In this document: positions 6,264 through 24,237 of the stretch, piece by piece | How the letters are laid out: every line of letters starts with the position of its first letter | Position numbering within the stretch: position 1 is the stretch's first letter | Source of the DNA: Giardia intestinalis | Lineage: Eukaryota | DNA length: 64,000 nucleotides | NCBI GenBank assembly: GCA_000002435.2 | Contig: CM018791.1 | Reading direction: 5' to 3' (one strand) | Notes under the pieces: model-generated | Databases searched by the model: none | Told to the model about the DNA's origin: nothing | Seen by the model: the letters and a program-made list of their open reading frames with translations, nothing else | Position numbers and translations under genes: made by a program

Positions 6264-9200
6264 ATGTTACTAGGGATTGTTCTTCTTTGTGCAGCTGTGC
6301 TAGCTAAAGAATGTGTGCCGCAAATTTCTGGATGCGCCGAATGTGATGAATCGACTGGAACCAAATGCACGCGCTGCGACCCGGCCGGCAACACGCCCTT
6401 CCTGATGGAGACGACGCCGGACGGCGGGGAGGGCACGTGCGTCGGGGACTGCACACAGACCCCGGGCTATTACGGCGACGCCAGCGACGACCAGAATAAG
6501 AAGTGCAAGAAGTGCAACGCCGCCTGCGCAGCGTGCTCTGGCGCAGAGGCCACGAAGTGCACGCGCTGCGACCCGGCCGGCAACACGCCCTTCCTGATGG
6601 AGACGACGCCGGACGGCGGGGAGGGCACGTGCGTCGGGGACTGCACACAGACCCCGGGCTATTACGGCGACGCCAGCGACGACCAGAATAAGAAGTGCAA
6701 GAAGTGCAACGCCGCCTGCGCAGCGTGCTCTGGCGCAGAGGCCACGAAGTGCACGCGCTGCGACCCGGCCGGCAACACGCCCTTCCTGATGGAGACGACG
6801 CCGGACGGCGGGGAGGGCACGTGCGTCGGGGACTGCACACAGACCCCGGGCTATTACGGCGACGCCAGCGACGACCAGAATAAGAAGTGCAAGAAGTGCA
6901 ACGCCGCCTGCGCAGCGTGCTCTGGCGCAGAGGCCACGAAGTGCACGCGCTGCGACCCGGCCGGCAACACGCCCTTCCTGATGGAGACGACGCCGGACGG
7001 CGGGGAGGGCACGTGCGTCGGGGACTGCACACAGACCCCGGGCTATTACGGCGACGCCAGCGACGACCAGAATAAGAAGTGCAAGAAGTGCAACGCCGCC
7101 TGCGCAGCGTGCTCTGGCGCAGAGGCCACGAAGTGCACGCGCTGCGACCCGGCCGGCAACACGCCCTTCCTGATGGAGACGACGCCGGACGGCGGGGAGG
7201 GCACGTGCGTCGGGGACTGCACACAGACCCCGGGCTATTACGGCGACGCCAGCGACGACCAGAATAAGAAGTGCAAGAAGTGCAACGCCGCCTGCGCAGC
7301 GTGCTCTGGCGCAGAGGCCACGAAGTGCACGCGCTGCGACCCGGCCGGCAACACGCCCTTCCTGATGGAGACGACGCCGGACGGCGGGGAGGGCACGTGC
7401 GTCGGGGACTGCACACAGACCCCGGGCTATTACGGCGACGCCAGCGACGACCAGAATAAGAAGTGCAAGAAGTGCAACGCCGCCTGCGCAGCGTGCTCTG
7501 GCGCAGAGGCCACGAAGTGCACGCGCTGCGACCCGGCCGGCAACACGCCCTTCCTGATGGAGACGACGCCGGACGGCGGGGAGGGCACGTGCGTCGGGGA
7601 CTGCACACAGACCCCGGGCTATTACGGCGACGCCAGCGACGACCAGAATAAGAAGTGCAAGAAGTGCAACGCCGCCTGCGCAGCGTGCTCTGGCGCAGAG
7701 GCCACGAAGTGCACGCGCTGCGACCCGGCCGGCAACACGCCCTTCCTGATGGAGACGACGCCGGACGGCGGGGAGGGCACGTGCGTCGGGGACTGCACAC
7801 AGACCCCGGGCTATTACGGCGACGCCAGCGACGACCAGAATAAGAAGTGCAAGAAGTGCAACGCCGCCTGCGCAGCGTGCTCTGGCGCAGAGGCCACGAA
7901 GTGCACGCGCTGCGACCCGGCCGGCAACACGCCCTTCCTGATGGAGACGACGCCGGACGGCGGGGAGGGCACGTGCGTCGGGGACTGCACACAGACCCCG
8001 GGCTATTACGGCGACGCCAGCGACGACCAGAATAAGAAGTGCAAGAAGTGCAACGCCGCCTGCGCAGCGTGCTCTGGCGCAGAGGCCACGAAGTGCACGC
8101 GCTGCGACCCGGCCGGCAACACGCCCTTCCTGATGGAGACGACGCCGGACGGCGGGGAGGGCACGTGCGTCGGGGACTGCACACAGACCCCGGGCTATTA
8201 CGGCGACGCCAGCGACGACCAGAATAAGAAGTGCAAGAAGTGCAACGCCGCCTGCGCAGCGTGCTCTGGCGCAGAGGCCACGAAGTGCACGCGCTGCGAC
8301 CCGGCCGGCAACACGCCCTTCCTGATGGAGACGACGCCGGACGGCGGGGAGGGCACGTGCGTCGGGGACTGCACACAGACCCCGGGCTATTACGGCGACG
8401 CCAGCGACGACCAGAATAAGAAGTGCAAGAAGTGCAACGCCGCCTGCGCAGCGTGCTCTGGCGCAGAGGCCACGAAGTGCACGCGCTGCGACCCGGCCGG
8501 CAACACGCCCTTCCTGATGGAGACGACGCCGGACGGCGGGGAGGGCACGTGCGTCGGGGACTGCACACAGACCCCGGGCTATTACGGCGACGCCAGCGAC
8601 GACCAGAATAAGAAGTGCAAGAAGTGCAACGCCGCCTGCGCAGCGTGCTCTGGCGCAGAGGCCACGAAGTGCACGCGCTGCGACCCGGCCGGCAACACGC
8701 CCTTCCTGATGGAGACGACGCCGGACGGCGGGGAGGGCACGTGCGTCGGGGACTGCACACAGACCCCGGGCTATTACGGCGACGCCAGCGACGACCAGAA
8801 TAAGAAGTGCAAGAAGTGCAACGCCGCCTGCGCAGCGTGCTCTGGCGCAGAGGCCACGAAGTGCACGCGCTGCGACCCGGCCGGCAACACGCCCTTCCTG
8901 ATGGAGACGACGCCGGACGGCGGGGAGGGCACGTGCGTCGGGGACTGCACACAGACCCCGGGCTATTACGGCGACGCCAGCGACGACCAGAATAAGAAGT
9001 GCAAGAAGTGCAACGCCGCCTGCGCAGCGTGCTCTGGCGCAGAGGCCACGAAGTGCACGCGCTGCGACCCGGCCGGCAACACGCCCTTCCTGATGGAGAC
9101 GACGCCGGACGGCGGGGAGGGCACGTGCGTCGGGGACTGCACACAGACCCCGGGCTATTACGGCGACGCCAGCGACGACCAGAATAAGAAGTGCAAGAAG

Positions 9201-10523
9201 TGTGCAGAAGGCCAAAAGCCTAATACTGCAGGAAATAAGTGCTTCGTTTGCCCAGATGCTAACTGTGAACGATGTGATCAGAGTGATGTCTGCGCTAGAT
9301 GCAGTACCGGCGCACCACTGGAGAACGGGAAATGCCCCGCCGCCACGCCGGGGTGCCACTCCAGCTGCGACGGATGCACCTCTGACGCCATGACGAACCA
9401 GGCCGACAAGTGCACTGGCTGTAAAGAGGGACGGTATCTAAAGCCAAACCCTGCAGCTGGGCAATCGGGAACGTGTCTTACTGCTGAAGAGTGCACCTCC
9501 GATAAGACGCACTTCACCAAGGAGAAGGTCGGTGACTCGAAGGGGATGTGCCTCCCATGCAGCGACGCAACACACGGCATCGCGGACTGCAAAAAGTGTG
9601 CCCTCAAAACGCTCTCTGGAGAAACAGAATCGACAGTTGTGTGCTCTGAGTGTACTGACAAATGGCTTACTCCTTCGGGCAATGCATGTTTAGAACAGTG
9701 TCCTGCTGGAACATATCCTAACGATAACAATCTTTGTACTCCTTGTCATGATACCTGTGCAGAGTGCAATGGCAATGCGGACGCTGCTTCCTGCACGGCT
9801 TGCTATCCTGGGTATTCTCTCCTGTATGGATCTGGCACAGCCGGAACATGCGTCAAGGAGTGCACTGGTGCGTTCGGCGCCAACTGTGCAGACGGGCAGT
9901 GCACGGCTGACGTGGGGGGCGCGAAGTACTGTGCCCAGTGCAAGGACGGGTACGCCCCGATCGACGGGATCTGTACAGCAGTGAAAACTGGGAGAGACGC
10001 GAGCGTATGTACGGCGGCAGGCGGGAAGTGCACCAAATGTGCAGGAGAGTATACTCTCATGTCGGGCGGGTGCTATGGTGTGGCGAAGCTTCCTGGCAAA
10101 TCGGTTTGCACGCTTGCTAACAATGGAAAGTGTACTATGTGTGCTGCAAATAGCCAGGCACCTGTGCAAGATAAGTGTCCGGAGTGCTCTGAAGGCTGTG
10201 CAAAATGCAATGATTCTAATGCCTGCACTGAATGCCTTCCTGGATACTATAAGAACAAGAGCAGCGCTTGTATACCATGCAGCAAAGATAGCACACCAAT
10301 CACTGGCGTGCCTAATTGCGTAAGCTGTGCTCCTCCAGCTGGTGGCAATGGCGGTCCTGTCCTCTGTTATCTCATGAAAGGTGCCGACAACACCGGCGGA
10401 AGCACGAACAAGAGCGGCCTTAGCACAGGCGCCATCGCGGGCATTTCCGTCGCTGTGATTGTTGTTGTAGGAGGCCTTGTGGGCTTCCTTTGCTGGTGGT
10501 TCCTCTGTAGAGGAAAAGCGTAG
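6264..10523 (+). CDS. variant-specific surface protein (VSP), 1419 aa, containing a large tandem-repeat array
   Basis: Starts at ATG 6264. N-terminal signal peptide MLLGIVLLCAAVLA. Very Cys-rich with many CXXC motifs and one GGCY motif. The C-terminus is a hydrophobic transmembrane segment (GAIAGISVAVIVVVGGLVGFLCWWFL) followed by the invariant VSP tail CRGKA and a stop. AGTAAAC follows 15 nt after the stop. Confidence 0.9.
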   Translation: MLLGIVLLCAAVLAKECVPQISGCAECDESTGTKCTRCDPAGNTPFLMETTPDGGEGTCVGDCTQTPGYYGDASDDQNKKCKKCNAACAACSGAEATKCTRCDPAGNTPFLMETTPDGGEGTCVGDCTQTPGYYGDASDDQNKKCKKCNAACAACSGAEATKCTRCDPAGNTPFLMETTPDGGEGTCVGDCTQTPGYYGDASDDQNKKCKKCNAACAACSGAEATKCTRCDPAGNTPFLMETTPDGGEGTCVGDCTQTPGYYGDASDDQNKKCKKCNAACAACSGAEATKCTRCDPAGNTPFLMETTPDGGEGTCVGDCTQTPGYYGDASDDQNKKCKKCNAACAACSGAEATKCTRCDPAGNTPFLMETTPDGGEGTCVGDCTQTPGYYGDASDDQNKKCKKCNAACAACSGAEATKCTRCDPAGNTPFLMETTPDGGEGTCVGDCTQTPGYYGDASDDQNKKCKKCNAACAACSGAEATKCTRCDPAGNTPFLMETTPDGGEGTCVGDCTQTPGYYGDASDDQNKKCKKCNAACAACSGAEATKCTRCDPAGNTPFLMETTPDGGEGTCVGDCTQTPGYYGDASDDQNKKCKKCNAACAACSGAEATKCTRCDPAGNTPFLMETTPDGGEGTCVGDCTQTPGYYGDASDDQNKKCKKCNAACAACSGAEATKCTRCDPAGNTPFLMETTPDGGEGTCVGDCTQTPGYYGDASDDQNKKCKKCNAACAACSGAEATKCTRCDPAGNTPFLMETTPDGGEGTCVGDCTQTPGYYGDASDDQNKKCKKCNAACAACSGAEATKCTRCDPAGNTPFLMETTPDGGEGTCVGDCTQTPGYYGDASDDQNKKCKKCNAACAACSGAEATKCTRCDPAGNTPFLMETTPDGGEGTCVGDCTQTPGYYGDASDDQNKKCKKCNAACAACSGAEATKCTRCDPAGNTPFLMETTPDGGEGTCVGDCTQTPGYYGDASDDQNKKCKKCAEGQKPNTAGNKCFVCPDANCERCDQSDVCARCSTGAPLENGKCPAATPGCHSSCDGCTSDAMTNQADKCTGCKEGRYLKPNPAAGQSGTCLTAEECTSDKTHFTKEKVGDSKGMCLPCSDATHGIADCKKCALKTLSGETESTVVCSECTDKWLTPSGNACLEQCPAGTYPNDNNLCTPCHDTCAECNGNADAASCTACYPGYSLLYGSGTAGTCVKECTGAFGANCADGQCTADVGGAKYCAQCKDGYAPIDGICTAVKTGRDASVCTAAGGKCTKCAGEYTLMSGGCYGVAKLPGKSVCTLANNGKCTMCAANSQAPVQDKCPECSEGCAKCNDSNACTECLPGYYKNKSSACIPCSKDSTPITGVPNCVSCAPPAGGNGGPVLCYLMKGADNTGGSTNKSGLSTGAIAGISVAVIVVVGGLVGFLCWWFLCRGKA
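6367..9202 (+). repeat. tandem array of about 14.8 apparently nucleotide-identical copies of a 192-bp unit (64 aa, 8 Cys: CTRCDPAGNTPFLMETTPDGGEGTCVGDCTQTPGYYGDASDDQNKKCKKCNAACAACSGAEATK) inside the VSP coding sequence
   Basis: The off-frame 62-aa ORFs recur at an exact 192-bp period (6503, 6695, ... 8999) and are identical. The VSP translation shows 14 full units plus one truncated unit. The copies look identical on visual comparison. Confidence 0.95.
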
Positions 10524-12035: not shown

Positions 12036-12069
12036 CCGCCAAAAAAACTAAGTAGAATTCGTCCAAAAA

Positions 12070-15000
12070 ATGTCTGCCCCGCCTGATTCTGCGTTTGCTA
12101 CTATACTCACCCCGACTGCGCTAGGCTCCATCAACCAAGAGGTCCGTGACGCTATTATGGCCCTCCAGAGTGAGTTGGAGAGTGAAAGAGAACGGGCCAG
12201 GAAGTTCGAGAATCAAGTTGCGGTCCTCTCTAGCAACGATCCCAGTGGGCTCTACAATAAATACATAGACATGGAAACTACGAGCGAACTGCTCAAGCAG
12301 GCCGTTCAGAAGGCTATCGAGGAGCGGGAGGCGCTAGAGAAACAGTATCAGAGTCTCAGAGCGGACTTCAGCTCACTTCAGGCGGATCTCGCAGCCAAGG
12401 AGGAGACACTACGGTTTCTAACGGACGGCAACGATGCCGCTAAGCAGCTGTCTATGGCCAATTCGGAGATCGCCGCCTTAAAGCTTGAAATATCAGATTT
12501 GGACGGTAACTTGAAACGCCTTACAAATGATGCGGAGAGGTTGCGCGGTGAATGCGAAGATCTCCGCGGAGAGAATGAGAACTTGAAGAATGCGCTCCAT
12601 CGTGTAGACGAGACCATGACAAATATCCGCAGCCACCAGGATAGCACAGCACCTGGCTCGACACACGGAAGTGCCTATGATGGTAACGAATTCTACAGGC
12701 CGCCGACGGGCAGGGATACCAAGTCTGATGACACCGATGCACCAGATTACCAGAAGCTGTACTTACAACAGAGCGATCAGATCTCGTCTCTTCAAGCAGA
12801 GCTTGAGAAGCTTAGATACCTTGCTAATCCCGATGACCAGTACAGCAGTAACATTGCGTCTTTGAATTACCAGGTGCACAAGCTGTTCGAGGATAATAAG
12901 AAGAGCCAGGTACGTATCAGCGAACTCACTGCTCAAAAGGAAGCCAGCGATGCGATAATTCACAGCCTGGAACAAGAGCTTGTTCACCTTCGCTCCGGAT
13001 CTGCTGCTGGATCTGCTGACCAGGCAGAGTTAAGTAACCTTCGAAACAAGCTGACGGCGACGGAAATAGAGCTTCGTTCTAAGAAACAAGAGGTCGAGAC
13101 TGCACGAAGCGAGAAGAATGCCATGGGGGCGGACTATTACGCACTCCAAGCTGAAATAGAGCAATACAAGAAGCTAGAGCACGATCTAAGCGTAGATGTG
13201 ACGCTTCTCCGCCAGCAGTTGGCTGAAGCGCGCGGGCAGGCTCCCGAAACAGGTGCTCTCCAGGCAGAGCTTGGTAATCTTCGTCAACTTTCTAATCGTC
13301 TCGAGCAAGAACTTCTTGCGCTCCGAAAAGCTCTTGGGAGCACTGGTATCACTGGGGTCGAGATTCAACTTAAGCGCAAGGACATAGAGATCGCTCGCTT
13401 GAATGAACGGGTCGAGCTACTTCTCAATACGTCTCCGGAGGCTGGCGATACCGTTGATAATCTCTCACGAAGATTGATGAATGTTCAGGAGGACCTCAAG
13501 ACCAAGGAACAGTTGCTTTCGAACTACGAAAACCACCTGACTGCAATGAACGGAGTGACACCGGATAAAATCGAGGAACTGACCTCTCAGATCAACACGC
13601 TAACTGCGCAGAACAGCGAGTTCGCTCATATGTTAAGCCAGCAAGGCCGCGGTCAGGAGGTCGAGATCATTGAAGGAAAGAATGCACGAATCAAAGAGTT
13701 GGAGGACGCAATCAAATCTTACAAATCTATAATTGACAATCTCGTAACCGCCAACGTTGCGTCAAATAAAGAGGTCAGCCAGATGAGTGAGGCCCTTGTT
13801 CTTCATGAGCAGACTGTCGCATCTCTCGCTGAATCTCTGCAGACAGGAATGGCCCTGAGGCTCGTGAATGCTCCATCAGATCAGCAAGCGCCAGCTACTA
13901 TTGGGGGCGATGCTCTTCCACTAGTAGTGCCAGATGAATATAAGATTCCGGATGAGGTCAAGCAGAGCTCCGATCCCAAGGTTCTGCGTGATGCGCTTCA
14001 AGCGACAGAGCAGATTATAGCCAAACTTTACGATGAAAATGTATCCAAGACACATGACATCGAGCAACTTCATGATGCTTTGAAGTCTCACGAGCACGCA
14101 CTCGTAAGCATCAGGGAGGCTAACTTAGCGAAGGATCAGGAAATCGACCAGCTCAATGATGCGTTAGCTCACCAGGAAAAGACAGTTGGGTCTCTTGTTG
14201 CCACACTTTCACCCCGATTGGGAAATTCGGCCATCCGTGACCGGGATGGGCTCATTCAGATGGGCAGCCCGGTCTATGATTACAGTGACATGCCCCCATC
14301 AGAGGCTGAGTTGGAGATGCTTAGAGAAGCTGTGAAGCATGCAGAAGATACGATCGCTGCTATGCGTGAGGCCAACGCCGCCAAAGACAAAGAGATTGAA
14401 GAACTTGGTCAGGCCCTAGCTCTGCAGGAGCAGACTGTGACCTCACTCTGCCAAACACTTTCTCCCAGTTTTACCGTGGGACCTGGAGCTGTTTCTTCTG
14501 AAGATGAGGGTCCGCTTGACAACCGCATCAAAGTGCCCCCTGAGACCTTGGAGAAGCTCCGGGACCTTGAGCACGAGAACGAGAAACTTAGGCACGACAT
14601 GCAGTTGCTTCAGAACCTTGAGAAGTACCTTCCAGGCGGTCATGTTTACGAGGAAAACGTGGAGAAAGGCGACGCCGGTGCTAATATGGCTTACTTACTT
14701 GCACACAAGGACGTCGAGCTGGAGAACCTCAACACAGAGCTTAAAGACCAGCAGGATGAGATAAAGCGTCTCAAGGAGGCTATGTTCTCGCGCGAGGAAG
14801 TCATCGCTAAAGTTTCTTACATCGATGCCAACAAGTCCAAGGAAATTGAAGACCTCCACGAGGCTATGCGAAAACAGGAGGAGATCGTTCAGAACCTCTG
14901 CGCTTCCCTGTCTCCAGATCTTACTGCAGCCATGGCGATGCAGCCGCGAAGTGGAGATGCCCCTGACGCTGATGATGCGAGACCTAAGTACAACATGGAG

Positions 15001-15642
15001 GAGCTTATTGCGGAGTTGCAGAAGAAGATCTCCGAGCTGGTGGGCGCTGAGCGCGTAGCCGAAAAAGACGCAGAGATCGACCGCCTCAAGAAGCAGCTGG
15101 CTTATCAGGAGAACCCAATTCTCGAACGCACCGCTATTAACGAACTTATGGAAAAGGAGACACACATCAAGAAGCTCCAAGATGTTATTGAGCGCCAAGA
15201 CAGGGTTATCGATGAGCTTAAAAACACTGTGATCCATCGCGAAAATGAAATAAACAACATGTCCAGTGCAAAGGCCAAGATAGAGCACGTCCTAGACCTG
15301 CAGGAGAAGAGTGGCGAGGCATCGAGGGCGAAACTTACAAACCTTTCAGAAGCATTGGCCAAACAAGAGAATCTGGTTGACCGCCTGTTGAATTGTCTCT
15401 CACCAAGCCAGCGCGAAACGTTCCTCAAAGAGGAGGAAGAGAGGAAGAAGCTGAAGGCAGCACGTGAGGAGGAGTTGGCCAATACAATCCGCGATCTCCA
15501 GGAACAGCTTGACCGGGCCAAGAATGAGGGAGGATCTACTAAGGAGGCGAGTGCGCTTCTTACGAAGGCGTCGGGCAAGATGATCCAATGGTTCAAGGAG
15601 CGCCCTAAGGACATGCCGAACGCCCTGGATATTTTTTCTTGA
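12070..15642 (+). CDS. long coiled-coil protein (1190 aa), heptad-rich and E/K/L/Q-rich, with internally repeated motif units
   Basis: ATG at 12070 preceded by ccaaaaaATG. Continuous ORF with a myosin-tail/SMC-like heptad composition. It has a recurring motif Q-E-x-T-V-x-S-L-x-x-x-L-S-P (EQTVASLAESLQ, EKTVGSLVATLSP, EQTVTSLCQTLSP, EEIVQNLCASLSP, ENLVDRLLNCLSP). Confidence 0.8.
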   Translation: MSAPPDSAFATILTPTALGSINQEVRDAIMALQSELESERERARKFENQVAVLSSNDPSGLYNKYIDMETTSELLKQAVQKAIEEREALEKQYQSLRADFSSLQADLAAKEETLRFLTDGNDAAKQLSMANSEIAALKLEISDLDGNLKRLTNDAERLRGECEDLRGENENLKNALHRVDETMTNIRSHQDSTAPGSTHGSAYDGNEFYRPPTGRDTKSDDTDAPDYQKLYLQQSDQISSLQAELEKLRYLANPDDQYSSNIASLNYQVHKLFEDNKKSQVRISELTAQKEASDAIIHSLEQELVHLRSGSAAGSADQAELSNLRNKLTATEIELRSKKQEVETARSEKNAMGADYYALQAEIEQYKKLEHDLSVDVTLLRQQLAEARGQAPETGALQAELGNLRQLSNRLEQELLALRKALGSTGITGVEIQLKRKDIEIARLNERVELLLNTSPEAGDTVDNLSRRLMNVQEDLKTKEQLLSNYENHLTAMNGVTPDKIEELTSQINTLTAQNSEFAHMLSQQGRGQEVEIIEGKNARIKELEDAIKSYKSIIDNLVTANVASNKEVSQMSEALVLHEQTVASLAESLQTGMALRLVNAPSDQQAPATIGGDALPLVVPDEYKIPDEVKQSSDPKVLRDALQATEQIIAKLYDENVSKTHDIEQLHDALKSHEHALVSIREANLAKDQEIDQLNDALAHQEKTVGSLVATLSPRLGNSAIRDRDGLIQMGSPVYDYSDMPPSEAELEMLREAVKHAEDTIAAMREANAAKDKEIEELGQALALQEQTVTSLCQTLSPSFTVGPGAVSSEDEGPLDNRIKVPPETLEKLRDLEHENEKLRHDMQLLQNLEKYLPGGHVYEENVEKGDAGANMAYLLAHKDVELENLNTELKDQQDEIKRLKEAMFSREEVIAKVSYIDANKSKEIEDLHEAMRKQEEIVQNLCASLSPDLTAAMAMQPRSGDAPDADDARPKYNMEELIAELQKKISELVGAERVAEKDAEIDRLKKQLAYQENPILERTAINELMEKETHIKKLQDVIERQDRVIDELKNTVIHRENEINNMSSAKAKIEHVLDLQEKSGEASRAKLTNLSEALAKQENLVDRLLNCLSPSQRETFLKEEEERKKLKAAREEELANTIRDLQEQLDRAKNEGGSTKEASALLTKASGKMIQWFKERPKDMPNALDIFS

Positions 15643-15702
15643 GTAGCACTTGGCGCTGATCGTGTTTACTCGTTCAAGCGTGTAAATATATTTTCTCTGT
15701 AG

Positions 15703-18700
15703 CTAAGAGCGTACATTCACAAAAGGGATTATCTCAGGACTCAGGGCATGCATGTATTGGTGCCTGCACCGAGCAAAGGCCTCGCAGAGCTCAGGGCCGC
15801 AGATGTCCCAGACAAGCTGGCATATCTGCAACGCCTCAACATACCTTCTCTGAACAAAGGGATAAGATCTAGCAAATCGGGATGATCTGAGATTGGGAGA
15901 CTCGTTGATTTTTACCAACGAGCTGCGTGTAAAGAAGATAGGCTGCAAGGAAATATCAATACCGCTATGACTATCTTTGATGGAGAGTTTTCCCGTGGGG
16001 AGCAGTGTATGTGTTGGCCGCATCTTTTGGGGGAAGATAGATGCTTGCTGGTTGTGTGTAGGAGATGCATCGTCTAATACGCTACTAGATGACTCTCTGT
16101 AGCTCCCTGTGCTATTCTCACTGATCTTCTCTGTGCCAGTTTCACTTTGCTCACTGGGAGCGGGCGTATCTTCAGAGAGGATTGTAGAAAAAGTCTTATC
16201 AGATGTCGAATAATTAGAAGAGGGCGTTGTACCACTGGAAGTATTAGTAGCGTTAACACATGTCTGGATCATACTGTTAAGTTGCTCCTGGAGGACCAAA
16301 ACATCTTCCCCATTAAAGGTCTTTATGATCAAATCTTCGTGGATCATGCAGAGCGGCTCTTCTATACCGGCTTTGGCGGATAGATTCCTTGAAACTGAAA
16401 TGCGGTATGATTCAGAAAATGTATTTTGCTTAGTCAAAGCAGAAACAGGCACCTCCTGCAAGTCTCGGGGCTTTGATTGCAATAGTGTCAGCTGTGCGTT
16501 AATAAAAGATTTCCACGCGTTTTCCCATAGCCATACGGTGTTATCGTTTAAACTAGGCCTAGAGAATGCAATAGTTGGATTGGTCATGGACACAGGCCAA
16601 TTGCAAGGGAGCTTGTTGACGAAAAGGTGATGTGCGAGACACATATCATTGCCATTCTCGTTGGAAGACTCATGTGAAAGTGGTACTACAGAAGGCAGCG
16701 TAGAGACCTTTTTCTTGGTAAGTGATTTGAGGCACTTGCTAATGTCAGAAAAGGCTGGAACGCTAGAAAACCCGCCCAGCTTGCACTGAGCTTCTTTTTC
16801 TTCTTCTGATAACGGAATACCTGTAACAGAATATCTATTGCATAGAATAATTGGGGGAGGAGTCTGGGTTTTGTATGAAGGCAGATCTGTATGCCTGCTC
16901 CATACCAAACGGTCGTTTGAAGCCACAGATATTCCAATTAAGGCACGGTTGGTAGCTATGCTCTCGAGATACTGGACAACTGAACCCTCAGCATCAGACT
17001 TGTAAGCAAAGTGCATCTGACTGTCAAGAAGTGATGGAAAAGCAGTTCTGGATCTGTGTTCTCTATCTCTACGAGGAGTATCCGGCTTGTACTCGCTAGA
17101 TGATGTTTGTGACATGTCATCCGTGCCTTCCGATGCACCGGTTGACCAAGTTGAAGGGCCGGAAGCAGAGTTAGCGGAGCTCGGTGTCGCTTTCGCTGGG
17201 GTTCTCGACCTACTATCTGAGTAAACATCCTTAAGTTCTAATGTCCCATACATCTGCTCACAGTACCGTATCGTAGGTAGCAGTTGTAGTAATGCGTAAG
17301 TATAAAATAAATAATACAGGATGACAGCTCGCGCCCGACGCTCCTCATCCGATACGCCCTTGCGCATCTGTGACGAATACACCGACGTCATCCGTGAGTA
17401 ACCAGAGCCCTTAATGTCTGTGTGAAACTTCCCTCTTCGCGAGAGGGAATTGAAGTCTGCAATCACAGAACCAAAGATATGTACTGAGATATCTATCTGA
17501 CGTCGAAACACACTGTTTTGTATTCCCAGAAGCATAAGAGAATCCTTTGTAGAGACCTCAGTAAGCTGAGATAAATCAAGAGAGAGGGAGGCTAGAGAGG
17601 CTGCCATGCTGGTTTCGATACTATCTTTAATTTTGATTAGGTTTAGCGGCAGAACTGTGGACACTGGGCGGAGAGTATCCACAATAGCCTGGAAGAATGG
17701 TTTCTCTTTGTGCTCAATGCACTTTCGCAGTATGCTGACAGAATTATTTTCTCCTGCTGCTAATAGATTATAGATGGATCCGGCTACAGATTTAGAGTGG
17801 TAAATTATCTTATTCTTAAGTCTGAGCCAGTCGTTATCGGTAGGATAGAGCAGCCCAGTTATGGTGTTTCCTATCATCCAGTTAGGTACGAGGGAGACTC
17901 GTGAGAAGGGAAAGTTGGGGTGCGCCTGCGTGTCTGTAGCCTGGTTAGAGACTTGGGAGGCTCTCTTTCGAGAGCTAATAAGTTGAGCTAAAGCAGCGTG
18001 TGCACTTGCAATTGCCGAGAGAGACATCTTAGCCTTGGGCTTTTTTGTATGCACATGTTCGGCAACCTCATTAGTCGCTACATCCTTACGGCCAGGAGAG
18101 TTTTGGTCCAACTTATAGCCGTGTTTCTGAAGAGATATTCGCTTAGTATTGTTTTTTGCACGTGCCTTAGAGTATGAGCTTGATGAGAGTGGATTGACGA
18201 GAGAGCTTTCACGTAATTCTGGTTCCAATCCATGCTTTAAGCTGACGTGCTGAGGCGATTGCACTTTAAGATGTGGTTCAGGTTCATCAATAGAACCATC
18301 CGATCCTTCCGTATCGCTGAAAATGAATCTCAACGATCCATCTTCGCCACGCGAGCCATCACTTTCATCGGAAGCGGTGCTTGAAGAATTGGTTGATTCG
18401 TCTGGCTGGGTTGAGGCAGAGTCTGCTAGCTCATTAAGGCACGTTGCGTATACATCTGTAGTATAGTGTGTTATCTCATCAATCCTAGTGCCGCAGTCGC
18501 TTAGAAAGTCCGAAGACTCACTCAGATAATTTTCTTCCAGGTCTTCCTGTGATGATTGACACAGCTTTTTGAATGATGGGGCAAGAAGTTTGCGCACGCA
18601 CGATACTGCTTTTCGACGCCAGCCAGTCTTGTCTGCATCTATTGCAAAGAAGAACTGCCGCCCCAGTTCCATAGTTAGTGGGTGGCTATAGCCAAGCATA

Positions 18701-21700
18701 TCCCCAACTATTTTAAGTTCAGACCCTATCCTTCCAATCGTCTTATCAAAAAATGCACCGGATACCCACTCAAGAATGAATGCTTCTCTGAGTATTAGCT
18801 CTACTGGTTCCATATTGATTTTAGAGTAAAGTAGCTTTTTGCTCTCTAAATCGACACCCCGCGAGCATTGGTCTTTGAGGACTGCGCTGACGTAACTTTT
18901 CCTAAGCAAACATGATAGATTGTAAAACTGTTCTAATTTCAGCTCTTGTAAAAATGGCCAATTTGATGTGCCACTGTCTATGGTATCACTCTCAATCCGT
19001 AGCAGATTGCCTAAGCCTGCCTCGATGTCCCTTAGATCTAAAGCATGTGCATCTATTTCTCCCGGATTTGCCTGAAAAGAAGCTGGCTCATATTCGCGTT
19101 GAATGGTCCCTAAAAGGGAGGCGTCCCATGAGACCCAATAGATGTCACCATCCAGGTCGCTGCCTGAAAGGCAATCTGTCATCGGACGACCTTCATAATA
19201 CTTTGGAAAGCAAATCACTCCTCTGTACATTCCCCTGATAGCTTCTTGTGCTACAAAGGATGGCAATACGGGCTTTAAATTCTGCCTGGACGCTTCCCGC
19301 CTGAGCCTTTCAAAGATGTTGACTGCGTGGTAAATTCGGACATCGCCACGATAAAAGCAGGGGTTTTTTGCTACGACTACACGACCCTCGACACAAGAGA
19401 TATTTAGTCCAACAGCAATATCAGATATCTGTAAGTCCAGATCTGGTGGTAGTAACGCTTCCTGCTGTGTGTCATTAGACATTGCCTTAAGATGTGTTGC
19501 TGCGGCCCATTTAGAGATGGATAGCGGCTCCTGCAACCCGACATACACCTCCCCCTCCTTCAAAAGGTCAAAACAATCGTAAACTCCAACGAATATCCGC
19601 GAATCTGGTACATAAAACCGCATATTTGCTTTCATACTACGTAGCTGCATCATTTGCAGCTTCATAAGAAGAAACTGAAGACAGGGCTCTGTAATGTCCA
19701 CGCCAGCCATCAGCATTTGGAGAATAAGCTTCCCGGAAGAACTATGAGATGCTCTACTGACCAACTGATAAAGATCTGCTTGGTGTCTGCAGCGGTCCAC
19801 GGGCTCCAGAAACAGAAGCGTCTTTTGCAAATCTTGATAAACCAGATTGAGAAAGACATCATCCGGAACGCCCATCTCTGATAGTAGCACAATAATCTGC
19901 ATATTTATCATCCCCTTTGACGGCTGCGCCACTCTGAGGATTTCTAGCGTCTGCTGGGTCTCAGTGGGATTAGGGATGCTGAACTTAACTTGAGACTTAT
20001 GGAACAGGATGGTCCTGGGTGGCAGAAGAGCGTTTAGAATGAGCACTCCCTTTGTGCCGGCCCAGCGCATTTGCACTGCAGAAGGTACCTGAATCAAATT
20101 TGAAGCTGTCTTCAAATTTGGTTGGAGATGTGGTACAGTGTGTTCACTGTCCTCGTTAGTATCAGCGAATCCATTATCATAGTATGTTTCTGTATCCTTA
20201 TGCAGTTGCTCGATCTTAAGCTTGTCCAGACAAAGGGCTATCTCGAGCATGAGATCGTAGCTTATCTCTCCTGCGCCATCAGTAAAAACGTAGCCATTAT
20301 ATTCCTTATCTGATACAATCTGCACATCCTCTTCCCTTACCTTTATCGTAGGTAAGGACTTACCAAAACATAGGCCTCTTCGTGTGCATATCTTGCAGGC
20401 CTGGACCTCCTTAATATCCCCGAGCCAATTTATTGCAAACTCGCGGAAGATAACAGCACGTGGACGCATAAACTTGTTCAGAATAGAGTCCAAATGGTCG
20501 ATGCTGGGAAGAATTGGTGATACGTAAAACGTGTAAAGCTTGGAGCTCAGATTGGCGTAAAAGGACTGATAGTATTTAAAGTCTCTGATAAAAGCAGTAA
20601 AGCGCTGCATATATCTATACATTAATTCATAGTCTGGTGCCCTAATAAACCAGCACTGTTGCTCCTTGAGCTGTCCACTCCCTTGTGCATAGTAAACAAA
20701 GACTGAACCACCGAGATAAACACCAGTTGTCAATATATTATAGATTGCTCGTTTTAATACAGATGAATGGGACGAGCGTGCAAATCTCCTGTTGGTTAAC
20801 GAAGGAAATCCGGCCCTAGCAATCGAGTGCTGTATTCTCTCTTCGATCATGACGGGCTTCTTATGTACCTTATGCCTTCGTTGAGCTGGTGATCCTGTGC
20901 GGTCAGGTAACTCAGCTCCATGTCTTCTGCTGTAGGGGCTCACAGATCTCTGCGGTGGTAACGAGGACGATGATCGTGGAACGGCAAACTCTACTCGTAA
21001 GAGGTGGCGCGAACCGAACTCACGAAGATGCCGAGAAGACATTTCAAGAATGGGTGTCTGGGGTAGAAGCAGCGCATAGACCCGCTCTTTTGTTGCAATT
21101 ATGACTATGATAACTTTGAAGACTAAGGCACTGATATTTTTTGGGTTTGGGGCACCGAGAACAGACCTGAGGCGAAGAGGCGAGTGGATGTGGGGGCCAG
21201 ACATGGTTGCAAAGTGATCGAGATGAGTAAATAAACCCAGCTCAAACAGATTGGAATGCGAAGCGTCTGTTCTGTCATCGGTATATACCGAGAAGACGCT
21301 ACTATACGAGTCCTTGCTTACGGTGCTGGTATTGATGTAAATTAGAGCTTGTTTGTGCTCTCCTTCCAACTGTCCATTGTGTAGTACAACTAGGTCGTCA
21401 AGCACTTCTTGTGCATAGATGGGATCAACTTTATGACACTCTGTGACCAGGTAATTGTACGCAGCTAATAGTAGCGAAATCTCGTCTTCATCATTCTCTA
21501 TTGCTGAGACTTGTAAATCGTACAATTGGATAATTATCCGCGATTGATCTAGCGCCCTAAATCCGGCTGAGTTGAGATGGAACTGGTCAAGTGCGTATCT
21601 CAGCGGAAATGATAGACTAAGCAGTGGAAAATCAAAGCCTCGTGGAGGAAAGCACCCCGATGGCGCAATGTATGGATATTGAGCATGTAGTTCGGACGCA

Positions 21701-21708
21701 GAGGGCAT
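15703..21708 (-). CDS. RNA-dependent RNA polymerase, eukaryotic RDR family (2001 aa), with the RdRP domain in the N-terminal half and a long S/T-rich C-terminal extension
   Basis: ATG at 21708 (minus). Contains KNPCFYRGDVRIYHAV and VICFPKYYEGRPMTDCLSGSDLDGDIYWVSWD. These match the RDR family's conserved (R/K)NP..HPGD(I/V)R and SG(S/G)DLDGD.Y.V.WD catalytic signature. Confidence 0.8.
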   Translation of the reverse strand: MPSASELHAQYPYIAPSGCFPPRGFDFPLLSLSFPLRYALDQFHLNSAGFRALDQSRIIIQLYDLQVSAIENDEDEISLLLAAYNYLVTECHKVDPIYAQEVLDDLVVLHNGQLEGEHKQALIYINTSTVSKDSYSSVFSVYTDDRTDASHSNLFELGLFTHLDHFATMSGPHIHSPLRLRSVLGAPNPKNISALVFKVIIVIIATKERVYALLLPQTPILEMSSRHLREFGSRHLLRVEFAVPRSSSSLPPQRSVSPYSRRHGAELPDRTGSPAQRRHKVHKKPVMIEERIQHSIARAGFPSLTNRRFARSSHSSVLKRAIYNILTTGVYLGGSVFVYYAQGSGQLKEQQCWFIRAPDYELMYRYMQRFTAFIRDFKYYQSFYANLSSKLYTFYVSPILPSIDHLDSILNKFMRPRAVIFREFAINWLGDIKEVQACKICTRRGLCFGKSLPTIKVREEDVQIVSDKEYNGYVFTDGAGEISYDLMLEIALCLDKLKIEQLHKDTETYYDNGFADTNEDSEHTVPHLQPNLKTASNLIQVPSAVQMRWAGTKGVLILNALLPPRTILFHKSQVKFSIPNPTETQQTLEILRVAQPSKGMINMQIIVLLSEMGVPDDVFLNLVYQDLQKTLLFLEPVDRCRHQADLYQLVSRASHSSSGKLILQMLMAGVDITEPCLQFLLMKLQMMQLRSMKANMRFYVPDSRIFVGVYDCFDLLKEGEVYVGLQEPLSISKWAAATHLKAMSNDTQQEALLPPDLDLQISDIAVGLNISCVEGRVVVAKNPCFYRGDVRIYHAVNIFERLRREASRQNLKPVLPSFVAQEAIRGMYRGVICFPKYYEGRPMTDCLSGSDLDGDIYWVSWDASLLGTIQREYEPASFQANPGEIDAHALDLRDIEAGLGNLLRIESDTIDSGTSNWPFLQELKLEQFYNLSCLLRKSYVSAVLKDQCSRGVDLESKKLLYSKINMEPVELILREAFILEWVSGAFFDKTIGRIGSELKIVGDMLGYSHPLTMELGRQFFFAIDADKTGWRRKAVSCVRKLLAPSFKKLCQSSQEDLEENYLSESSDFLSDCGTRIDEITHYTTDVYATCLNELADSASTQPDESTNSSSTASDESDGSRGEDGSLRFIFSDTEGSDGSIDEPEPHLKVQSPQHVSLKHGLEPELRESSLVNPLSSSSYSKARAKNNTKRISLQKHGYKLDQNSPGRKDVATNEVAEHVHTKKPKAKMSLSAIASAHAALAQLISSRKRASQVSNQATDTQAHPNFPFSRVSLVPNWMIGNTITGLLYPTDNDWLRLKNKIIYHSKSVAGSIYNLLAAGENNSVSILRKCIEHKEKPFFQAIVDTLRPVSTVLPLNLIKIKDSIETSMAASLASLSLDLSQLTEVSTKDSLMLLGIQNSVFRRQIDISVHIFGSVIADFNSLSRRGKFHTDIKGSGYSRMTSVYSSQMRKGVSDEERRARAVILYYLFYTYALLQLLPTIRYCEQMYGTLELKDVYSDSRSRTPAKATPSSANSASGPSTWSTGASEGTDDMSQTSSSEYKPDTPRRDREHRSRTAFPSLLDSQMHFAYKSDAEGSVVQYLESIATNRALIGISVASNDRLVWSRHTDLPSYKTQTPPPIILCNRYSVTGIPLSEEEKEAQCKLGGFSSVPAFSDISKCLKSLTKKKVSTLPSVVPLSHESSNENGNDMCLAHHLFVNKLPCNWPVSMTNPTIAFSRPSLNDNTVWLWENAWKSFINAQLTLLQSKPRDLQEVPVSALTKQNTFSESYRISVSRNLSAKAGIEEPLCMIHEDLIIKTFNGEDVLVLQEQLNSMIQTCVNATNTSSGTTPSSNYSTSDKTFSTILSEDTPAPSEQSETGTEKISENSTGSYRESSSSVLDDASPTHNQQASIFPQKMRPTHTLLPTGKLSIKDSHSGIDISLQPIFFTRSSLVKINESPNLRSSRFARSYPFVQRRYVEALQICQLVWDICGPELCEAFARCRHQYMHALSPEIIPFVNVRS

Positions 21709-21759
21709 AAGCCCAGATTATCCTGTTTTGTCTTAAAAAATCTAGATAGAGCGAAGCGC
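21709..21759. promoter_or_regulatory. 51-bp divergent intergenic region shared by the RdRP gene (-) and the 21760 gene (+); putative bidirectional promoter
   Basis: aagcccagattatcctgttttgtcttaaaaaatctagatagagcgaagcgc lies between the two outward-facing ATGs and contains an AT-rich taaaaaat element. Confidence 0.4.
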
Positions 21760-24237
21760 ATGAATGAGGATGACGGGCTATCGAGTCTAACGGTGCTTGT
21801 CCTATCTGATTTGAGCGGCGACGATCGCAAACTGACACTTCTATTAACAGAATTGATCAGGAGGCGGCAACTTATCGATTGCATCTTTGTCACCGGAAGC
21901 TTAACAAACGGAGACCCACGGCAGTTTAACAATACTGACTACATAGCTGAAGTTCTAGTGCGCTACAAAGTCGTCCTGCAGACACTCCGGCAGATCTCCC
22001 CATTAGTTTATTTTGTCCAGGGAGCCAATGACCCCGTGCTGACAATAAAAAAGCTATCATCTGGCACTCAAGCAGAGAGTATGGTATTAATGAGGTACCC
22101 AGATAATAACGAGTGGTGCATGGACGTCTCCTTCCAGGCAGTGAGACTCGCATCAAATCTGGTTATTGTTGGCTCTTCAGGGTCCAGCGCATCACTAGAT
22201 TCGTGTGCCAGAGAAGCATATGATAATGGTGCCGACATTCTATGGTCAGATACAATGAAGCAGGAGCTGACTGACACAGACGACCAGAAAGAGACAACCC
22301 CGTCCTCCTCTTCTTCTTCCCCGACTTCATCTTCTACCAGTCTACTACAACGGCTTCTAAACTTTGAGCTCCAGGTTACACTGTTTGATGTCTTGCGATC
22401 AGCACTTCTGGAGTTGAACACAGTTCAACCGTCTTCAGAAGCATTTCTGCATAATATACCTGTGACTAACACAGTGCAATCTGTTCTAAAGGACGTAGAC
22501 CCTAGGCTTTTCTACACGACACGGACGCCTGACGAACTCCGTGCTCTAATTACATATAAGCACAGCACAATGGCTGAACCGTTCAGACATAGGCATATGC
22601 CCAGCGGCTCCAACAGCTGCGTACAAAGGCAATCCCAGCATCCACCCTATCCTTTTGGCCCTTTCTTCTATCCTTATGTTCTTTATGAAGGCCTAAGTAA
22701 CTTTAACTCCTACACAACTGACGCCCTGACACTGGCGATTCAGTATGCTCAATCATTCAATGATTATGTGGTAGACACATCTGCTGAGAGAGATTCATTT
22801 TTGACTTATAGCAGAAGATCTGCTGCGTGGATGAATACACACCTTCTACCCCAGCTTTATGAACCCCTGCCAGCAAAGCTTTCTCGCCTTAGTGATGTGT
22901 CTGGACAAGCGGCTCGAAGCCTTCGCCCCACGTTTTCTTCAGACACCACAACAGGGCGCGTCAATCTCTCCCTGCACTATTCTCTTGACATACTACAGGC
23001 GCATACTACTTTTCATGACGAACCAATGGCAATCTTCATTAAATTCCTTTTGAATCCCAGTTTGTTAAACCCTACAGAGAGCATGTACATGCGGATTTAT
23101 GGGCCATTGTTCTGTCATAGCGTAGACTCTTTGCCAGGCAGCGCCTTCCAGAAGCTAGTAGCCTCATCACCTATTGAAGCAGATCATTTTGTGTCTTCCA
23201 CCGCAGTGTATTCCGATGAGGGCACAGATATCTTATCCCTAGCAACGCCGGCCAATAATGCCATGGACGATATGCTCAAGAAAGAGTGGATGATGAAACA
23301 CACTATTGTAGCTATTAGAGATGGAACTTCTCACGATTTGCATGATCTTTACAAGGAAACGTGTGATATCGTTGATGAATTCTCCTCATCAAGCGACGCA
23401 TCTGCACACAGCACGTCAAAGTATATTCGCTCCATGTCCACGCATTACGTAAAGACTCTGTCGAACCCTTCTAGCACCACTGCTTCACTTGTATCTAGTT
23501 TTACAGACGAGGGTGCTGTGAGTACTGTAGATAGTAGTTCCTCTGCAAAACTTAGCTTCTCCCATTCGCCAGTACTAGCTCCCATCACTCTGCTGGCTAA
23601 ACCTCGTTCCAACTTTGTCTCTCCGAGCAACGTACAGAACTATTCGTCCTACTTAAAGCCAAATAGAATAAAGGAGTCTCCACAAAGTCCCTCCAGCTGC
23701 CTACCAAAGTCACTATCTGTGCTCCCCAAGCTTGGCGAGTCTGCTCTATTCAAAAAAGAGTCTCAAACTAAAGATAAGGGCATGCGAGGCTGGCTTAAGT
23801 TAGCTCCAAATTTATATGATTATTTGCCAAAATCTTGGACAGATTGGTCCAACCTCATGCAATGCACGAGCAACGAATTGTCACAGCTCTATTCATTCAA
23901 TGCGTCAAAGGATTCCGTAATTCTCTTAACACATCAGGGGCCAGCTGGATCGCCCACCAGCTATGAGTTCGATCGAGACAAAGGAGAGCTCCTCGAAACA
24001 GGGTCATATGGTTTGCGTGAGCTCCATTGTGGGAGGCTGAATGTCTTACTCCATGTCCATGGTCGCGCAAGAAGGCCTCTAGTACGACTTTATGAAGTAG
24101 ATGATGTCATGGTATTCAACCCCGGTACATTCCGCGATGGGCTCTATGGTATATTGGAGCTCAAGAGAAAGGCCGGCATCTGGCAAGTGTCTTCAGCCTC
24201 AGTCCATAAGCTCATGGCAGAGATTGGGAGTGCTTGA
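21760..24237 (+). CDS. hypothetical protein with split calcineurin-like metallophosphoesterase signatures (825 aa)
   Basis: ATG at 21760. The N-terminus has LVLSDLSGDD, FVTGSLTNGDP and YFVQGANDP (D-x-GD, GD-x-x-D and GN(H/D)-like motifs). The C-terminus has LLTHQGPAG and LLHVHGRARRP (GHxH-like). These are separated by about 600 aa of S/T-rich sequence. Confidence 0.45.
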   Translation: MNEDDGLSSLTVLVLSDLSGDDRKLTLLLTELIRRRQLIDCIFVTGSLTNGDPRQFNNTDYIAEVLVRYKVVLQTLRQISPLVYFVQGANDPVLTIKKLSSGTQAESMVLMRYPDNNEWCMDVSFQAVRLASNLVIVGSSGSSASLDSCAREAYDNGADILWSDTMKQELTDTDDQKETTPSSSSSSPTSSSTSLLQRLLNFELQVTLFDVLRSALLELNTVQPSSEAFLHNIPVTNTVQSVLKDVDPRLFYTTRTPDELRALITYKHSTMAEPFRHRHMPSGSNSCVQRQSQHPPYPFGPFFYPYVLYEGLSNFNSYTTDALTLAIQYAQSFNDYVVDTSAERDSFLTYSRRSAAWMNTHLLPQLYEPLPAKLSRLSDVSGQAARSLRPTFSSDTTTGRVNLSLHYSLDILQAHTTFHDEPMAIFIKFLLNPSLLNPTESMYMRIYGPLFCHSVDSLPGSAFQKLVASSPIEADHFVSSTAVYSDEGTDILSLATPANNAMDDMLKKEWMMKHTIVAIRDGTSHDLHDLYKETCDIVDEFSSSSDASAHSTSKYIRSMSTHYVKTLSNPSSTTASLVSSFTDEGAVSTVDSSSSAKLSFSHSPVLAPITLLAKPRSNFVSPSNVQNYSSYLKPNRIKESPQSPSSCLPKSLSVLPKLGESALFKKESQTKDKGMRGWLKLAPNLYDYLPKSWTDWSNLMQCTSNELSQLYSFNASKDSVILLTHQGPAGSPTSYEFDRDKGELLETGSYGLRELHCGRLNVLLHVHGRARRPLVRLYEVDDVMVFNPGTFRDGLYGILELKRKAGIWQVSSASVHKLMAEIGSA

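Follow-up and report, generated by a model that had tools for sequence, protein, structure and literature searches.

A refined domain map of the RDR-family RNA-dependent RNA polymerase of Giardia duodenalis

The RdRP locus

The stretch of Giardia DNA analyzed here (the window, 64,000 nucleotides) contains an ATG-started open reading frame (ORF) that, according to the ORF list and its translation, encodes a protein of 2001 aa on the reverse strand (Table 1). This protein is 100% identical across all 2001 residues to XP_001710276.1/AAM73688.1, which carries the database title "putative RNA-directed RNA polymerase [Giardia duodenalis]" (UniRef E2RTV4), and the two represent the same G. duodenalis WB gene, with zero differences. 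Because of this identity the gene is to be regarded as already known; it has been annotated and studied before, and its rediscovery adds nothing new. The new increment is a refined domain map. It places an insertion within the RdRP domain, moves the last family motif to aa 1275-1313 and recognizes C-terminal blocks whose conservation extends to a distant relative. The orthologues in assemblages E and B comprise 1999 and 1989 aa, respectively.

[quoted passage not shown] Assemblage E has a spacer of 54 bp and assemblage B one of 44 bp, both with the A/T-rich core conserved, and the spacer is presumed to be a bidirectional promoter. The initial annotation had also labeled the neighbor phosphoesterase-like, a label that the profile searches do not bear out: the intact 825-aa protein yields no Pfam match, and an artificial splice of its N- and C-terminal parts reaches Metallophos_3 only below threshold (E=0.086, 12.6 bits versus a cut-off of 28.2). 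On the opposite flank, two genes separate the RdRP gene from a canonical VSP gene, whose end lies at a distance of 5,180 bp from the stop codon of the RdRP gene, in agreement with the 5 kb originally noted. The encoded VSP contains 12.4% Cys and 64 CXXC motifs and ends in ...GLVGFLCWWFLCRGKA. It thereby shows the VSP layout of a Cys-rich ectodomain with CXXC motifs, one C-terminal TM helix and the invariant cytoplasmic tail CRGKA, and its gene harbors 14.8 perfect 192-bp repeats at 6366-9202.

Table 1. Coordinates of features at the RdRP locus (positions in the window).
Feature	Position	Strand	Description and evidence
Neighboring VSP gene, 1419 aa	6264..10523	(+)	Pfam VSP 2.9e-70; CRGKA tail
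AGTAAAC	15664..15670	(-)	32 nt past stop codon; inferred polyadenylation signal
Complete RdRP gene	15703..21708	(-)	2001 codons + TAG stop at 15703-15705
C-terminal module, aa 1901-2001	15706..16008	(-)	dN/dS 0.07; P0035 BLASTP segment E=8e-5
Variable region, aa 1481-1900	16009..17268	(-)	S/T-rich linkers around conserved block; dN/dS
Conserved predicted-helical block, aa 1316-1480	17269..17763	(-)	Common to P0035; dN/dS 0.11 (aa 1271-1500)
Last conserved RdRP-family motif, aa 1273-1315	17764..17892	(-)	PNWM...(x21)...YHSKSVAGSIY; alignment, hhalign
~221-aa insertion, aa ~1045-1265	17914..18576	(-)	Missing from P0035; in-silico deletion; dN/dS 0.20
Pfam PF05183 match, aa 217-1049	18562..21060	(-)	Pfam; PDB sequence and Foldseek matches to RDR2, QDE-1
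DADKTGW motif, aa 1024-1030	18619..18639	(-)	Corresponds to canonical RDR motif D[YF]xKTG
Catalytic DLDGD, aa 851-855	19144..19158	(-)	Aligned to Arabidopsis RDR2 catalytic DLDGD
KNPCFYRGDVRIYHAV motif, aa 781-796	19321..19368	(-)	Sequence, RDR2 alignment
N-terminal region, aa 1-216, ahead of Pfam match	21061..21708	(-)	dN/dS 0.06
Spacer between divergent RdRP and 825-aa genes	21709..21759	.	51 bp; A/T-rich core CTTAAAAAATCTAGATAG

Family assignment and catalytic core

The ORF protein scores 282.2 bits with the Pfam RdRP profile PF05183, for which the cut-off is 23.8 bits. The match covers positions 9-558 of the 582-position profile and, with an E-value of 1.2e-83, lies far beyond chance. A phmmer search of PDB sequences returned RDR2 (6e-21), as well as maize RDR2 and QDE-1, the sequence similarity to QDE-1 being weak (E=3e-5 to 5e-3). 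Together with a 12-sequence alignment and Foldseek comparisons, these matches bear out the RDR-family assignment proposed initially, and the identity with the annotated WB protein confirms that the ORF is Giardia's RdRP; nothing was found against this assignment. The published literature describes the RdRP gene as single-copy in Giardia, and this ORF is very likely that gene, coding for the cellular two-barrel RdRP (RDR family) of G. duodenalis assemblage A, WB reference.

Word-indexed protein searches returned very few RDRs, and the depth of the alignments was limited accordingly. Across the 12 RDRs that were aligned, residues D851, D853, G854 and D855 are invariant and no catalytic aspartate is substituted, consistent with the intact DLDGD loop described in the initial annotation. 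Both motifs quoted there are present: KNPCFYRGDVRIYHAV at aa 781-796, for which the alignment gives KNPCLHPGDIRVLDAI as the RDR2 counterpart, and SGSDLDGDIYWVSWD at aa 848-862 (nt 19123-19167, minus strand). The (K/R)NPxxHPGD family motif is represented by KNPCFYRGD (aa 781-789), and all three flanking RDR-family motifs can be recognized in the Giardia RdRP with atypical spacing, including about 80 more aa between DLDGD and DADKTG than in canonical RDRs. The N-terminal region is also strongly conserved, and its alignment with the RdRP of a distant relative begins at aa 10. This 1904-aa protein (P0035) is encoded in a Giardia-like compact genome (Logan assembly of SRR31929897, locus L005).

The plant RDR2 proteins of Arabidopsis and maize (PDB 7eu0, 7roz, 7w82) share the Pfam domain with the Giardia RdRP and provide its best Foldseek matches. 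Their KNPC.H.GD and SG.DLDGD motifs align with the Giardia protein residue for residue, and their D.xKTG and PxFM...YxSxxLGxLY motifs are likewise found in it. In contrast, identity to RDR2 amounts to only ~20-25%, and the Giardia protein is ~900 aa longer: it carries additional residues in the DLDGD-DADKTG interval, a 220-aa insertion that separates DADKTG from PNWM, and a C-terminal extension of ~680 aa. Furthermore, canonical RDRs show no detectable similarity to the Giardia RdRP past the last motif, in their presumed head region. No Pol IV partner is known from Giardia. QDE-1 produces dsRNA for Dicer in post-transcriptional silencing, a role that the Giardia RdRP would share. The Neurospora crassa and Thielavia QDE-1 proteins (PDB 2j7n, 5fsw, 7y7p) belong to the two-barrel RdRP fold family, of which the Giardia protein is probably also a member, and share the DbDGD catalytic loop, but they lack both the long insertion and the C-terminal extension. 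P0035, on the other hand, is collinear with the Giardia RdRP from the N- to the C-terminus at 28% identity, and the two proteins have in common the N-terminal region, the core and the C-terminal module, along with a block that corresponds to aa 1273-1472. It differs in its gene neighbors and in the lack of the ~200-aa insertion after DADKTG.

Structural predictions were of low confidence except in parts of the barrels. An AlphaFold2 model of aa 830-2001 computed without any alignment was unusable (mean pLDDT 34). With 8 homologues as input, the model of aa 520-1500 averaged a pLDDT of 39, and values of 70-83 were confined to barrel segments. Foldseek with this poor model nonetheless produced 21 matches at E<=0.001, all of them to RDR2 or QDE-1 and with TM-scores of only ~0.2, followed by the large subunits of multisubunit RNA polymerases.

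Insertion and last family motif

Judging from the sequence alignments, the RdRP domain appears to be split by an insertion of ~220 aa, with the final family motif located beyond it, at aa 1275-1313. The distance from DADKTG to PxW[FM] is 251 aa in Giardia, 51 aa in P0035 and ~20 aa in canonical RDRs. The Giardia segment PNWM...YHSKSVAGSIY is equivalent to PxFME...YxSxxxLGxLY: the 12-sequence alignment shows full invariance for P1275 and near-invariance for Y1303, S1305 and G1310, and hhalign recovers the motif with P=7e-4 over 22 columns. In-silico removal of aa 1047-1265 lengthens the Pfam match from position 558 to 580 of 582, with a gain of 5.5 bits that is modest if taken alone. The insertion itself (aa ~1045-1265) has a net charge of -9 and a Ser content of 17%. 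This acidic, Ser-rich segment is probably disordered, and its position and distribution point to an element that sits within the RdRP domain and is specific to the G. duodenalis lineage.

Conserved blocks and linkers in the C-terminal half

The initial annotation had presented the C-terminal half of the protein as a 1000-aa low-complexity tail with no recognizable domain. The underlying S/T enrichment is real, as S and T make up 22.0% of aa 1050-2001 versus 11.9% of the Pfam-matched core (aa 217-1049). The description as low complexity does not hold, however, with a sequence entropy of 4.09 bits for aa 1050-2001 compared to 4.03-4.17 bits for the rest of the protein, and neither does the claim of a domain-free tail, given the polymerase motif inside it. 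A search for tandem repeats in aa 1050-2001 found none. Conserved blocks alternate with variable linkers in this region, and the entire RdRP ORF is under purifying selection (dN/dS of 0.13 for the whole ORF, 0.10 for the core and 0.19 for aa 1050-2001).

Following the last family motif, the first of these blocks overlaps a segment (aa 1273-1472) that BLASTP aligns with residues 1081-1290 of P0035 (E=1e-10), and a profile search with the tail also finds P0035 (E=1.8e-6). Fast-evolving, S/T-rich linkers are restricted to two stretches (~aa 1500-1600 and 1750-1900), with dN/dS values of 0.51 for aa 1501-1600 and 0.25 for aa 1751-1900, and the block that they enclose (aa 1601-1750) is conserved (dN/dS 0.135). 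In the C-terminal module, residues L1965, W1967, D1968, G1971, E1973, C1975, F1978, A1979 and R1980 are invariant. A zinc site suggested by the Cys/His pattern of the last 40 aa was rejected, as C1975 is the only residue of that pattern conserved in P0035.

The block at aa 1316-1480 possibly corresponds to the RDR head. In hhalign comparisons with the canonical RDR post-motif ('head') alignment, no similarity was detected for aa 1380-1500 (P=0.74) or for the last 110 aa (P=0.13), leaving the notion of the C-terminal blocks as displaced head-domain elements without profile support. Pfam, searched with the tail and its pieces, returned nothing meaningful, and neither did the PDB sequences, for which both single-sequence and profile queries were used. 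Among 1.84 billion representatives, the tail profile matched only Giardia sequences, P0035 and, as a low-complexity match, P0036, which was dismissed.

The ~680-aa C-terminal extension contains conserved blocks (aa 1316-1480, 1601-1750 and 1901-2001) linked by fast-evolving, S/T-rich stretches. Alternatively, the tail (aa 1050-2001) could be dispensable, drifting low-complexity sequence, a reading consistent with its S/T content, with the lack of Pfam or PDB matches, with an identity to assemblage B of 56% compared to 76% for the core, and with the elevated dN/dS (0.25-0.51) of the linkers. This reading is unlikely, because protein length changes little, from 1989-2001 aa among three assemblages to 1904 aa in the relative with 28% identity, which still aligns with aa 1273-1472 and 1904-2001, and because the blocks at aa 1271-1500, 1601-1750 and 1901-2001 show dN/dS values (0.07-0.135) as low as that of the catalytic core. 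The absence of tandem repeats and the presence of the family's final motif within the tail also argue against it. We infer that the conserved C-terminal blocks serve as accessory or scaffolding modules specific to the lineage, and the domain map could guide the design of truncation or deletion constructs.

Catalytic activity and VSP silencing

The gene matters because it belongs to the RNAi machinery that has been implicated in Giardia antigenic variation, and RdRP knock-down strains have served as vaccine material. The involvement of RdRP-dependent RNAi in VSP silencing, invoked in the initial annotation, is in line with published work in which RdRP knock-down de-represses VSPs, with trophozoites expressing many of them (PMC8957917, PMC5707882, PMC3282835). 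Purified Giardia RdRP is also reported to make high-molecular-weight VSP RNA in vitro (Prucca et al. 2008, via PMC3566956). The literature also contains rival models for VSP control based on miRNA and on epigenetic regulation.

By analogy with the family, the aspartates of the DLDGD loop (D851, D853 and D855) would coordinate Mg2+, and both family membership and the published Giardia work suggest that the enzyme would use single-stranded RNA as a template to make antisense or double-stranded RNA, with VSP mRNAs likely to be among its substrates on the basis of the latter. The resulting dsRNA would be cut by Giardia Dicer, which together with Argonaute would limit expression to one VSP. Tentatively, and with more doubt than confidence, the insertion and the ~680-aa extension may be accessory modules recruiting the RdRP to VSP transcripts or to Dicer/Argonaute. 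If true, such modules would help explain how the RdRP discriminates all VSP mRNAs but one.

The interruption of the polymerase domain, both between DLDGD and DADKTG and past DADKTG, could also be the mark of a catalytically dead pseudo-polymerase retained for scaffolding. With the catalytic aspartates and flanking motifs all intact and invariant, a core dN/dS of 0.10 and the in vitro RNA synthesis reported for the purified enzyme, we regard this as very unlikely, and an active polymerase as the preferred reading.

Genomic context and gene model

The Giardia genome contains ~200-300 VSP genes in ~12 Mb, so that chance alone would place a VSP within ~5 kb of any given gene roughly 10-20% of the time. 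A VSP occupies the same position past the same two intervening genes in assemblages A, B and E, with ~50-53% identity between the VSPs, which could be taken to indicate that the proximity is functional, for instance by way of a local link between this VSP locus and the expression or action of the RdRP. Such a link is highly improbable: the two intervening genes, encoding a 214-aa protein and a coiled-coil protein of 1190 aa, are unrelated, the orientation of the VSP is flipped in assemblage E, and the general synteny of the block (ACS, 825 aa, RdRP, 1191 aa, 214 aa) accounts for its conservation among assemblages. Moreover, no VSP lies within 10 kb of the gene for P0035, and the published model has the RdRP protein acting in trans in the cytoplasm. 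The RdRP-VSP linkage thus looks like inherited synteny rather than function, in keeping with the coincidence suspected at the outset, and neither the VSP close by nor the 51-bp spacer between the divergent genes is anything unusual in the compact Giardia genome.

The end of the Pfam match at aa 1049, an older GenBank record of only 1377 aa (AAK97084.1) and the ~1100-1500 aa of canonical RDRs might suggest that the 2001-codon ORF is an artefact of the gene model, joining an RdRP gene of ~1050-1300 aa and another gene downstream of it, but this is extremely improbable given the unbroken reading frame, an architecture shared by three assemblages and the distant relative, in-frame purifying selection on the tail, and the location of the family's last motif (aa 1275-1313) past any plausible fusion point. 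Downstream of the stop codon of this single gene, AGTAAAC matches the Giardia polyadenylation consensus AGTRAAY and presumably serves as the polyadenylation signal, and the intergenic spacers at the locus carry A/T-rich signals.

Identity and catalytic domain of the RdRP

The minus-strand ORF runs through 2001 codons without interruption, as seen in the ORF listing and in its translation, which contains both peptides quoted in the initial annotation, KNPCFYRGDVRIYHAV and SGSDLDGDIYWVSWD. The Pfam RdRP profile PF05183 matches its core with E=1.2e-83 and 282 bits (curated cut-off 23.8 bits), and the top PDB-sequence matches are Arabidopsis RDR2 (E=6e-21) and maize RDR2 (2e-17), with QDE-1 also present. 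In the alignment to RDR2, KNPCFYRGDVR lies opposite KNPCLHPGDIR and the second quoted peptide opposite SGGDLDGDQFFVSWD, and residues D851, D853, G854 and D855 are invariant in a 12-sequence alignment that includes fungal and metazoan RDRs. With the domain matched and its aspartates unsubstituted, the assignment of this gene to the RDR family with an intact catalytic loop is right and the underlying observation real. Judged on its sequence, the protein has the full RDR catalytic apparatus, with purifying selection acting on it, and the alternative of a dead polymerase was given little weight.

Along its entire length the protein shows 100% identity to XP_001710276.1, AAM73688.1 and KAE8303209.1, which share the database title "putative RNA-directed RNA polymerase [Giardia duodenalis]". 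The window is thus WB reference sequence and the gene an annotated one: it is the known and experimentally studied Giardia RdRP, and a refined domain map is the sole new increment. An older GenBank record of the same protein, AAK97084.1 ('RNA-dependent RNA-polymerase', 1377 aa), is apparently partial, and work built on it would miss the C-terminal 600 aa. Orthologues are present in assemblage E (P15; 1999 aa, 82% identical) and assemblage B (GS; 1989 aa, 67% identical). The closest RdRP outside G. duodenalis, P0035, is a 1904-aa protein encoded on L005, a 46.7-kb contig of a compact Giardia-like genome (SRR31929897, assembled by Logan) that may belong to an unsequenced or unannotated Giardia-related species; it is collinear with the Giardia RdRP but only 28% identical to it. 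Of six L005 proteins checked, P0035 and five of its neighbours, none shares a 90%-identity cluster with a named protein. The reading of the 2001-codon ORF as a gene-fusion artefact was likewise down-weighted.

Coordinates of features in the window and on L005, with segment dN/dS values (assemblage A vs assemblage E)
Feature	Nucleotides	Strand	Amino acids	dN/dS
Canonical VSP gene	6264..10523	+		
Long antisense ORF	6300..9359	-		
Long antisense ORF	6304..9144	-		
VSP repeat array	6366-9202			
RdRP gene to convergent gene	15643-15702			
AGTAAAC	15664-15670	-		
RdRP gene	15703..21708	-	2001 aa	
KNPCFYRGDVRIYHAV	19321-19368		781-796	
SGSDLDGDIYWVSWD	19123-19167		848-862	
PF05183 match (core)			217-1049	
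DLDGD			851	
DADKTG			1024	
Predicted insertion			~1045-1265	
PNWMIGN...(x21)...YHSKSVAGSIY			1275-1313	
Conserved block			1271-1500	0.11
S/T-rich linker			1501-1600	0.51
Conserved block			1601-1750	0.135
S/T-rich linker			1751-1900	0.25
Conserved block			1901-2001	0.07
Divergent 825-aa ORF	21760..24237	+		
ACS-like ORF	24101-27013	+		
P0035 (on L005)	10001-15715			

Dicer, Argonaute and RdRP are each present in one copy in Giardia (PMC5704216), and knock-down of RdRP or Dicer yields trophozoites expressing many VSPs (PMC8957917, PMC3282835, PMC5707882). According to PMC3566956, which cites Prucca et al. 2008, the purified Giardia enzyme is reported to synthesise VSP RNA of high molecular weight in vitro; miRNA and epigenetic models of VSP control, competing or complementary, have also been published. 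From family membership and the Giardia literature, the enzyme would make antisense or double-stranded RNA on RNA templates in a Mg2+-dependent reaction, with VSP mRNAs among its likely templates, and its product would feed Dicer and Argonaute, leading to the silencing of all VSPs but one.

Predicted insertion within the RdRP domain

The motifs of canonical RDRs follow a fixed order: DbDGD, ~90 aa, D[YF]xKTG, ~20 aa, and PxFME...YxSxxxLGxLY. In the Giardia RdRP, DADKTG and PNWM are separated by 251 aa, compared to 51 aa in P0035 and ~20 aa in canonical RDRs. In-silico deletion of aa 1047-1265 extended the end of the Pfam match from position 558 to 580 of the 582 in the profile, with a gain of 5.5 bits, and BLASTP against P0035 paired LVPNWM...IIYHSKSVAGSIYNLL with LRPSWF...VYYRSESVLGKIYDLL. 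Furthermore, a 22-column hhalign match (P=7e-4) links the YxSxxxGxIY segment to the canonical profile, and the 12-sequence alignment shows P1275 to be invariant and Y1303, S1305 and G1310 nearly so. These four results (Pfam extension, P0035 spacing, hhalign and the 12-sequence alignment) agree in identifying aa ~1045-1265, between the last two motifs, as a predicted insertion within the RdRP domain. It is 17% Ser, has a net charge of -9 and a dN/dS about double that of the core (0.20 vs 0.10); more speculatively, this acidic, Ser-rich segment may form a disordered surface loop, possibly a target of phosphorylation.

The C-terminal extension

The region from aa 1050 to 2001 had been described as a low-complexity tail with no recognisable domain. 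Its S/T enrichment is borne out (22.0% S+T vs 11.9% in the core), but its low complexity is not: its entropy of 4.09 bits is similar to that of the remaining protein, and a search of aa 1050-2001 for tandem repeats found none. The last family motif, at PNWM, lies within the supposedly domainless tail. Pfam and PDB sequence searches with the region beyond that motif returned no match. Comparison of assemblages A and E resolves the remainder into three conserved blocks and two linkers, in which S+T peaks at 38% (50-aa windows). Two segments, aa 1273-1472 (E=1e-10) and aa 1904-2001 (E=8e-5), align to P0035 by BLASTP, and a tail profile run against 1.84 billion representative proteins recovered nothing beyond Giardia sequences except P0035 (E=1.8e-6) and a single low-complexity match. 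Taken together, the low dN/dS of the blocks, their alignment to P0035 and the restricted profile matches indicate that the extension is an old, selected, lineage-restricted feature rather than drifting filler, and a dispensable tail was accordingly down-weighted among the alternatives.

Comparison of the post-motif blocks with the canonical post-motif "head" region by hhalign detected no similarity. Two AlphaFold runs were of low confidence (mean pLDDT 34 and 39); a structure search with the better model retrieved only RDR2 and QDE-1 at E<=0.001, down to 1e-12, followed by the large subunits of multisubunit RNA polymerases, a pattern expected of two-barrel polymerases; TM-scores of ~0.2 reflect the poor model. 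More speculatively, the conserved blocks may serve as modules for accessory functions or interactions.

Genomic context and the neighbouring VSP

The neighbouring VSP gene is canonical (Pfam VSP 2.9e-70, 12.4% Cys, 64 CXXC motifs) and ends in a TM helix followed by CRGKA; no other ORF in the 64 kb has a CRGKA end. It carries 14.8 copies of a 192-bp tandem repeat (100% matches, no indels) encoding a 64-aa Cys-rich unit, of which the two long antisense ORFs are by-products. Between its end and the RdRP stop codon lie 5,180 bp and two genes, one an ORF of 214 aa, the other coding for a coiled-coil protein of 1190 aa.

The order ACS (ADP-forming acetyl-CoA synthetase), 825 aa, RdRP, 1191-aa coiled-coil, 214 aa and VSP, noted at 11391-15642 of the window, is kept in assemblages A, E and B. 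Outside its repeats, the window's VSP is 50-53% identical to the VSPs at the matching place. The copy in assemblage E lies in inverted orientation; this 530-aa protein aligns to one copy of the repeat unit only. In one assemblage B assembly, ankyrin-repeat genes replace kinesin beyond the ACS gene. On L005 the neighbours of P0035 are wholly different, with no VSP within 10 kb, and include ribosomal protein S7e. A functional linkage between RdRP and VSP is unlikely and was down-weighted: because two genes intervene, VSP orientation varies and the published model has the enzyme acting in trans in the cytoplasm, the proximity points to inherited local synteny and high VSP gene density, in agreement with the earlier view that it is probably coincidental.

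Divergent and convergent gene boundaries

Exactly 51 bp, as first reported, lie between the RdRP gene and the divergent 825-aa ORF; this spacer measures 54 bp in assemblage E and 44 bp in B and has a conserved A/T-rich core. Its role as a shared promoter is inferred from how compact Giardia promoters are known to be. The "phosphoesterase-like" label of this neighbour, which is conserved in assemblages B and E with lengths of 825-839 aa, found no support in a significant hit: the intact protein matched no Pfam domain, and an artificial splice of its two ends gave only Metallophos_3 below threshold (E=0.086). Its ends, LVLSDLSGD...GANDP at the N-terminus and LLTHQGP...HVHGRARRP at the C-terminus, do look like calcineurin-type metallophosphoesterase halves, with ~550 aa of Ser-rich sequence between them.

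The ACS-like ORF (ATP-grasp_5, CoA_binding_2, Succ_CoA_lig), listed at 970 aa, in that form shares 137 nt with the end of the 825-aa ORF; gene calls for its orthologues give 902-904 aa, so translation probably begins at an internal ATG ~68 codons downstream, free of overlap. At the other end, 60 bp separate the RdRP gene from the convergent 1190-aa gene, and AGTAAAC, which fits the Giardia polyadenylation consensus AGTRAAY, lies beyond the RdRP stop; the two transcripts may therefore overlap at their 3' ends.
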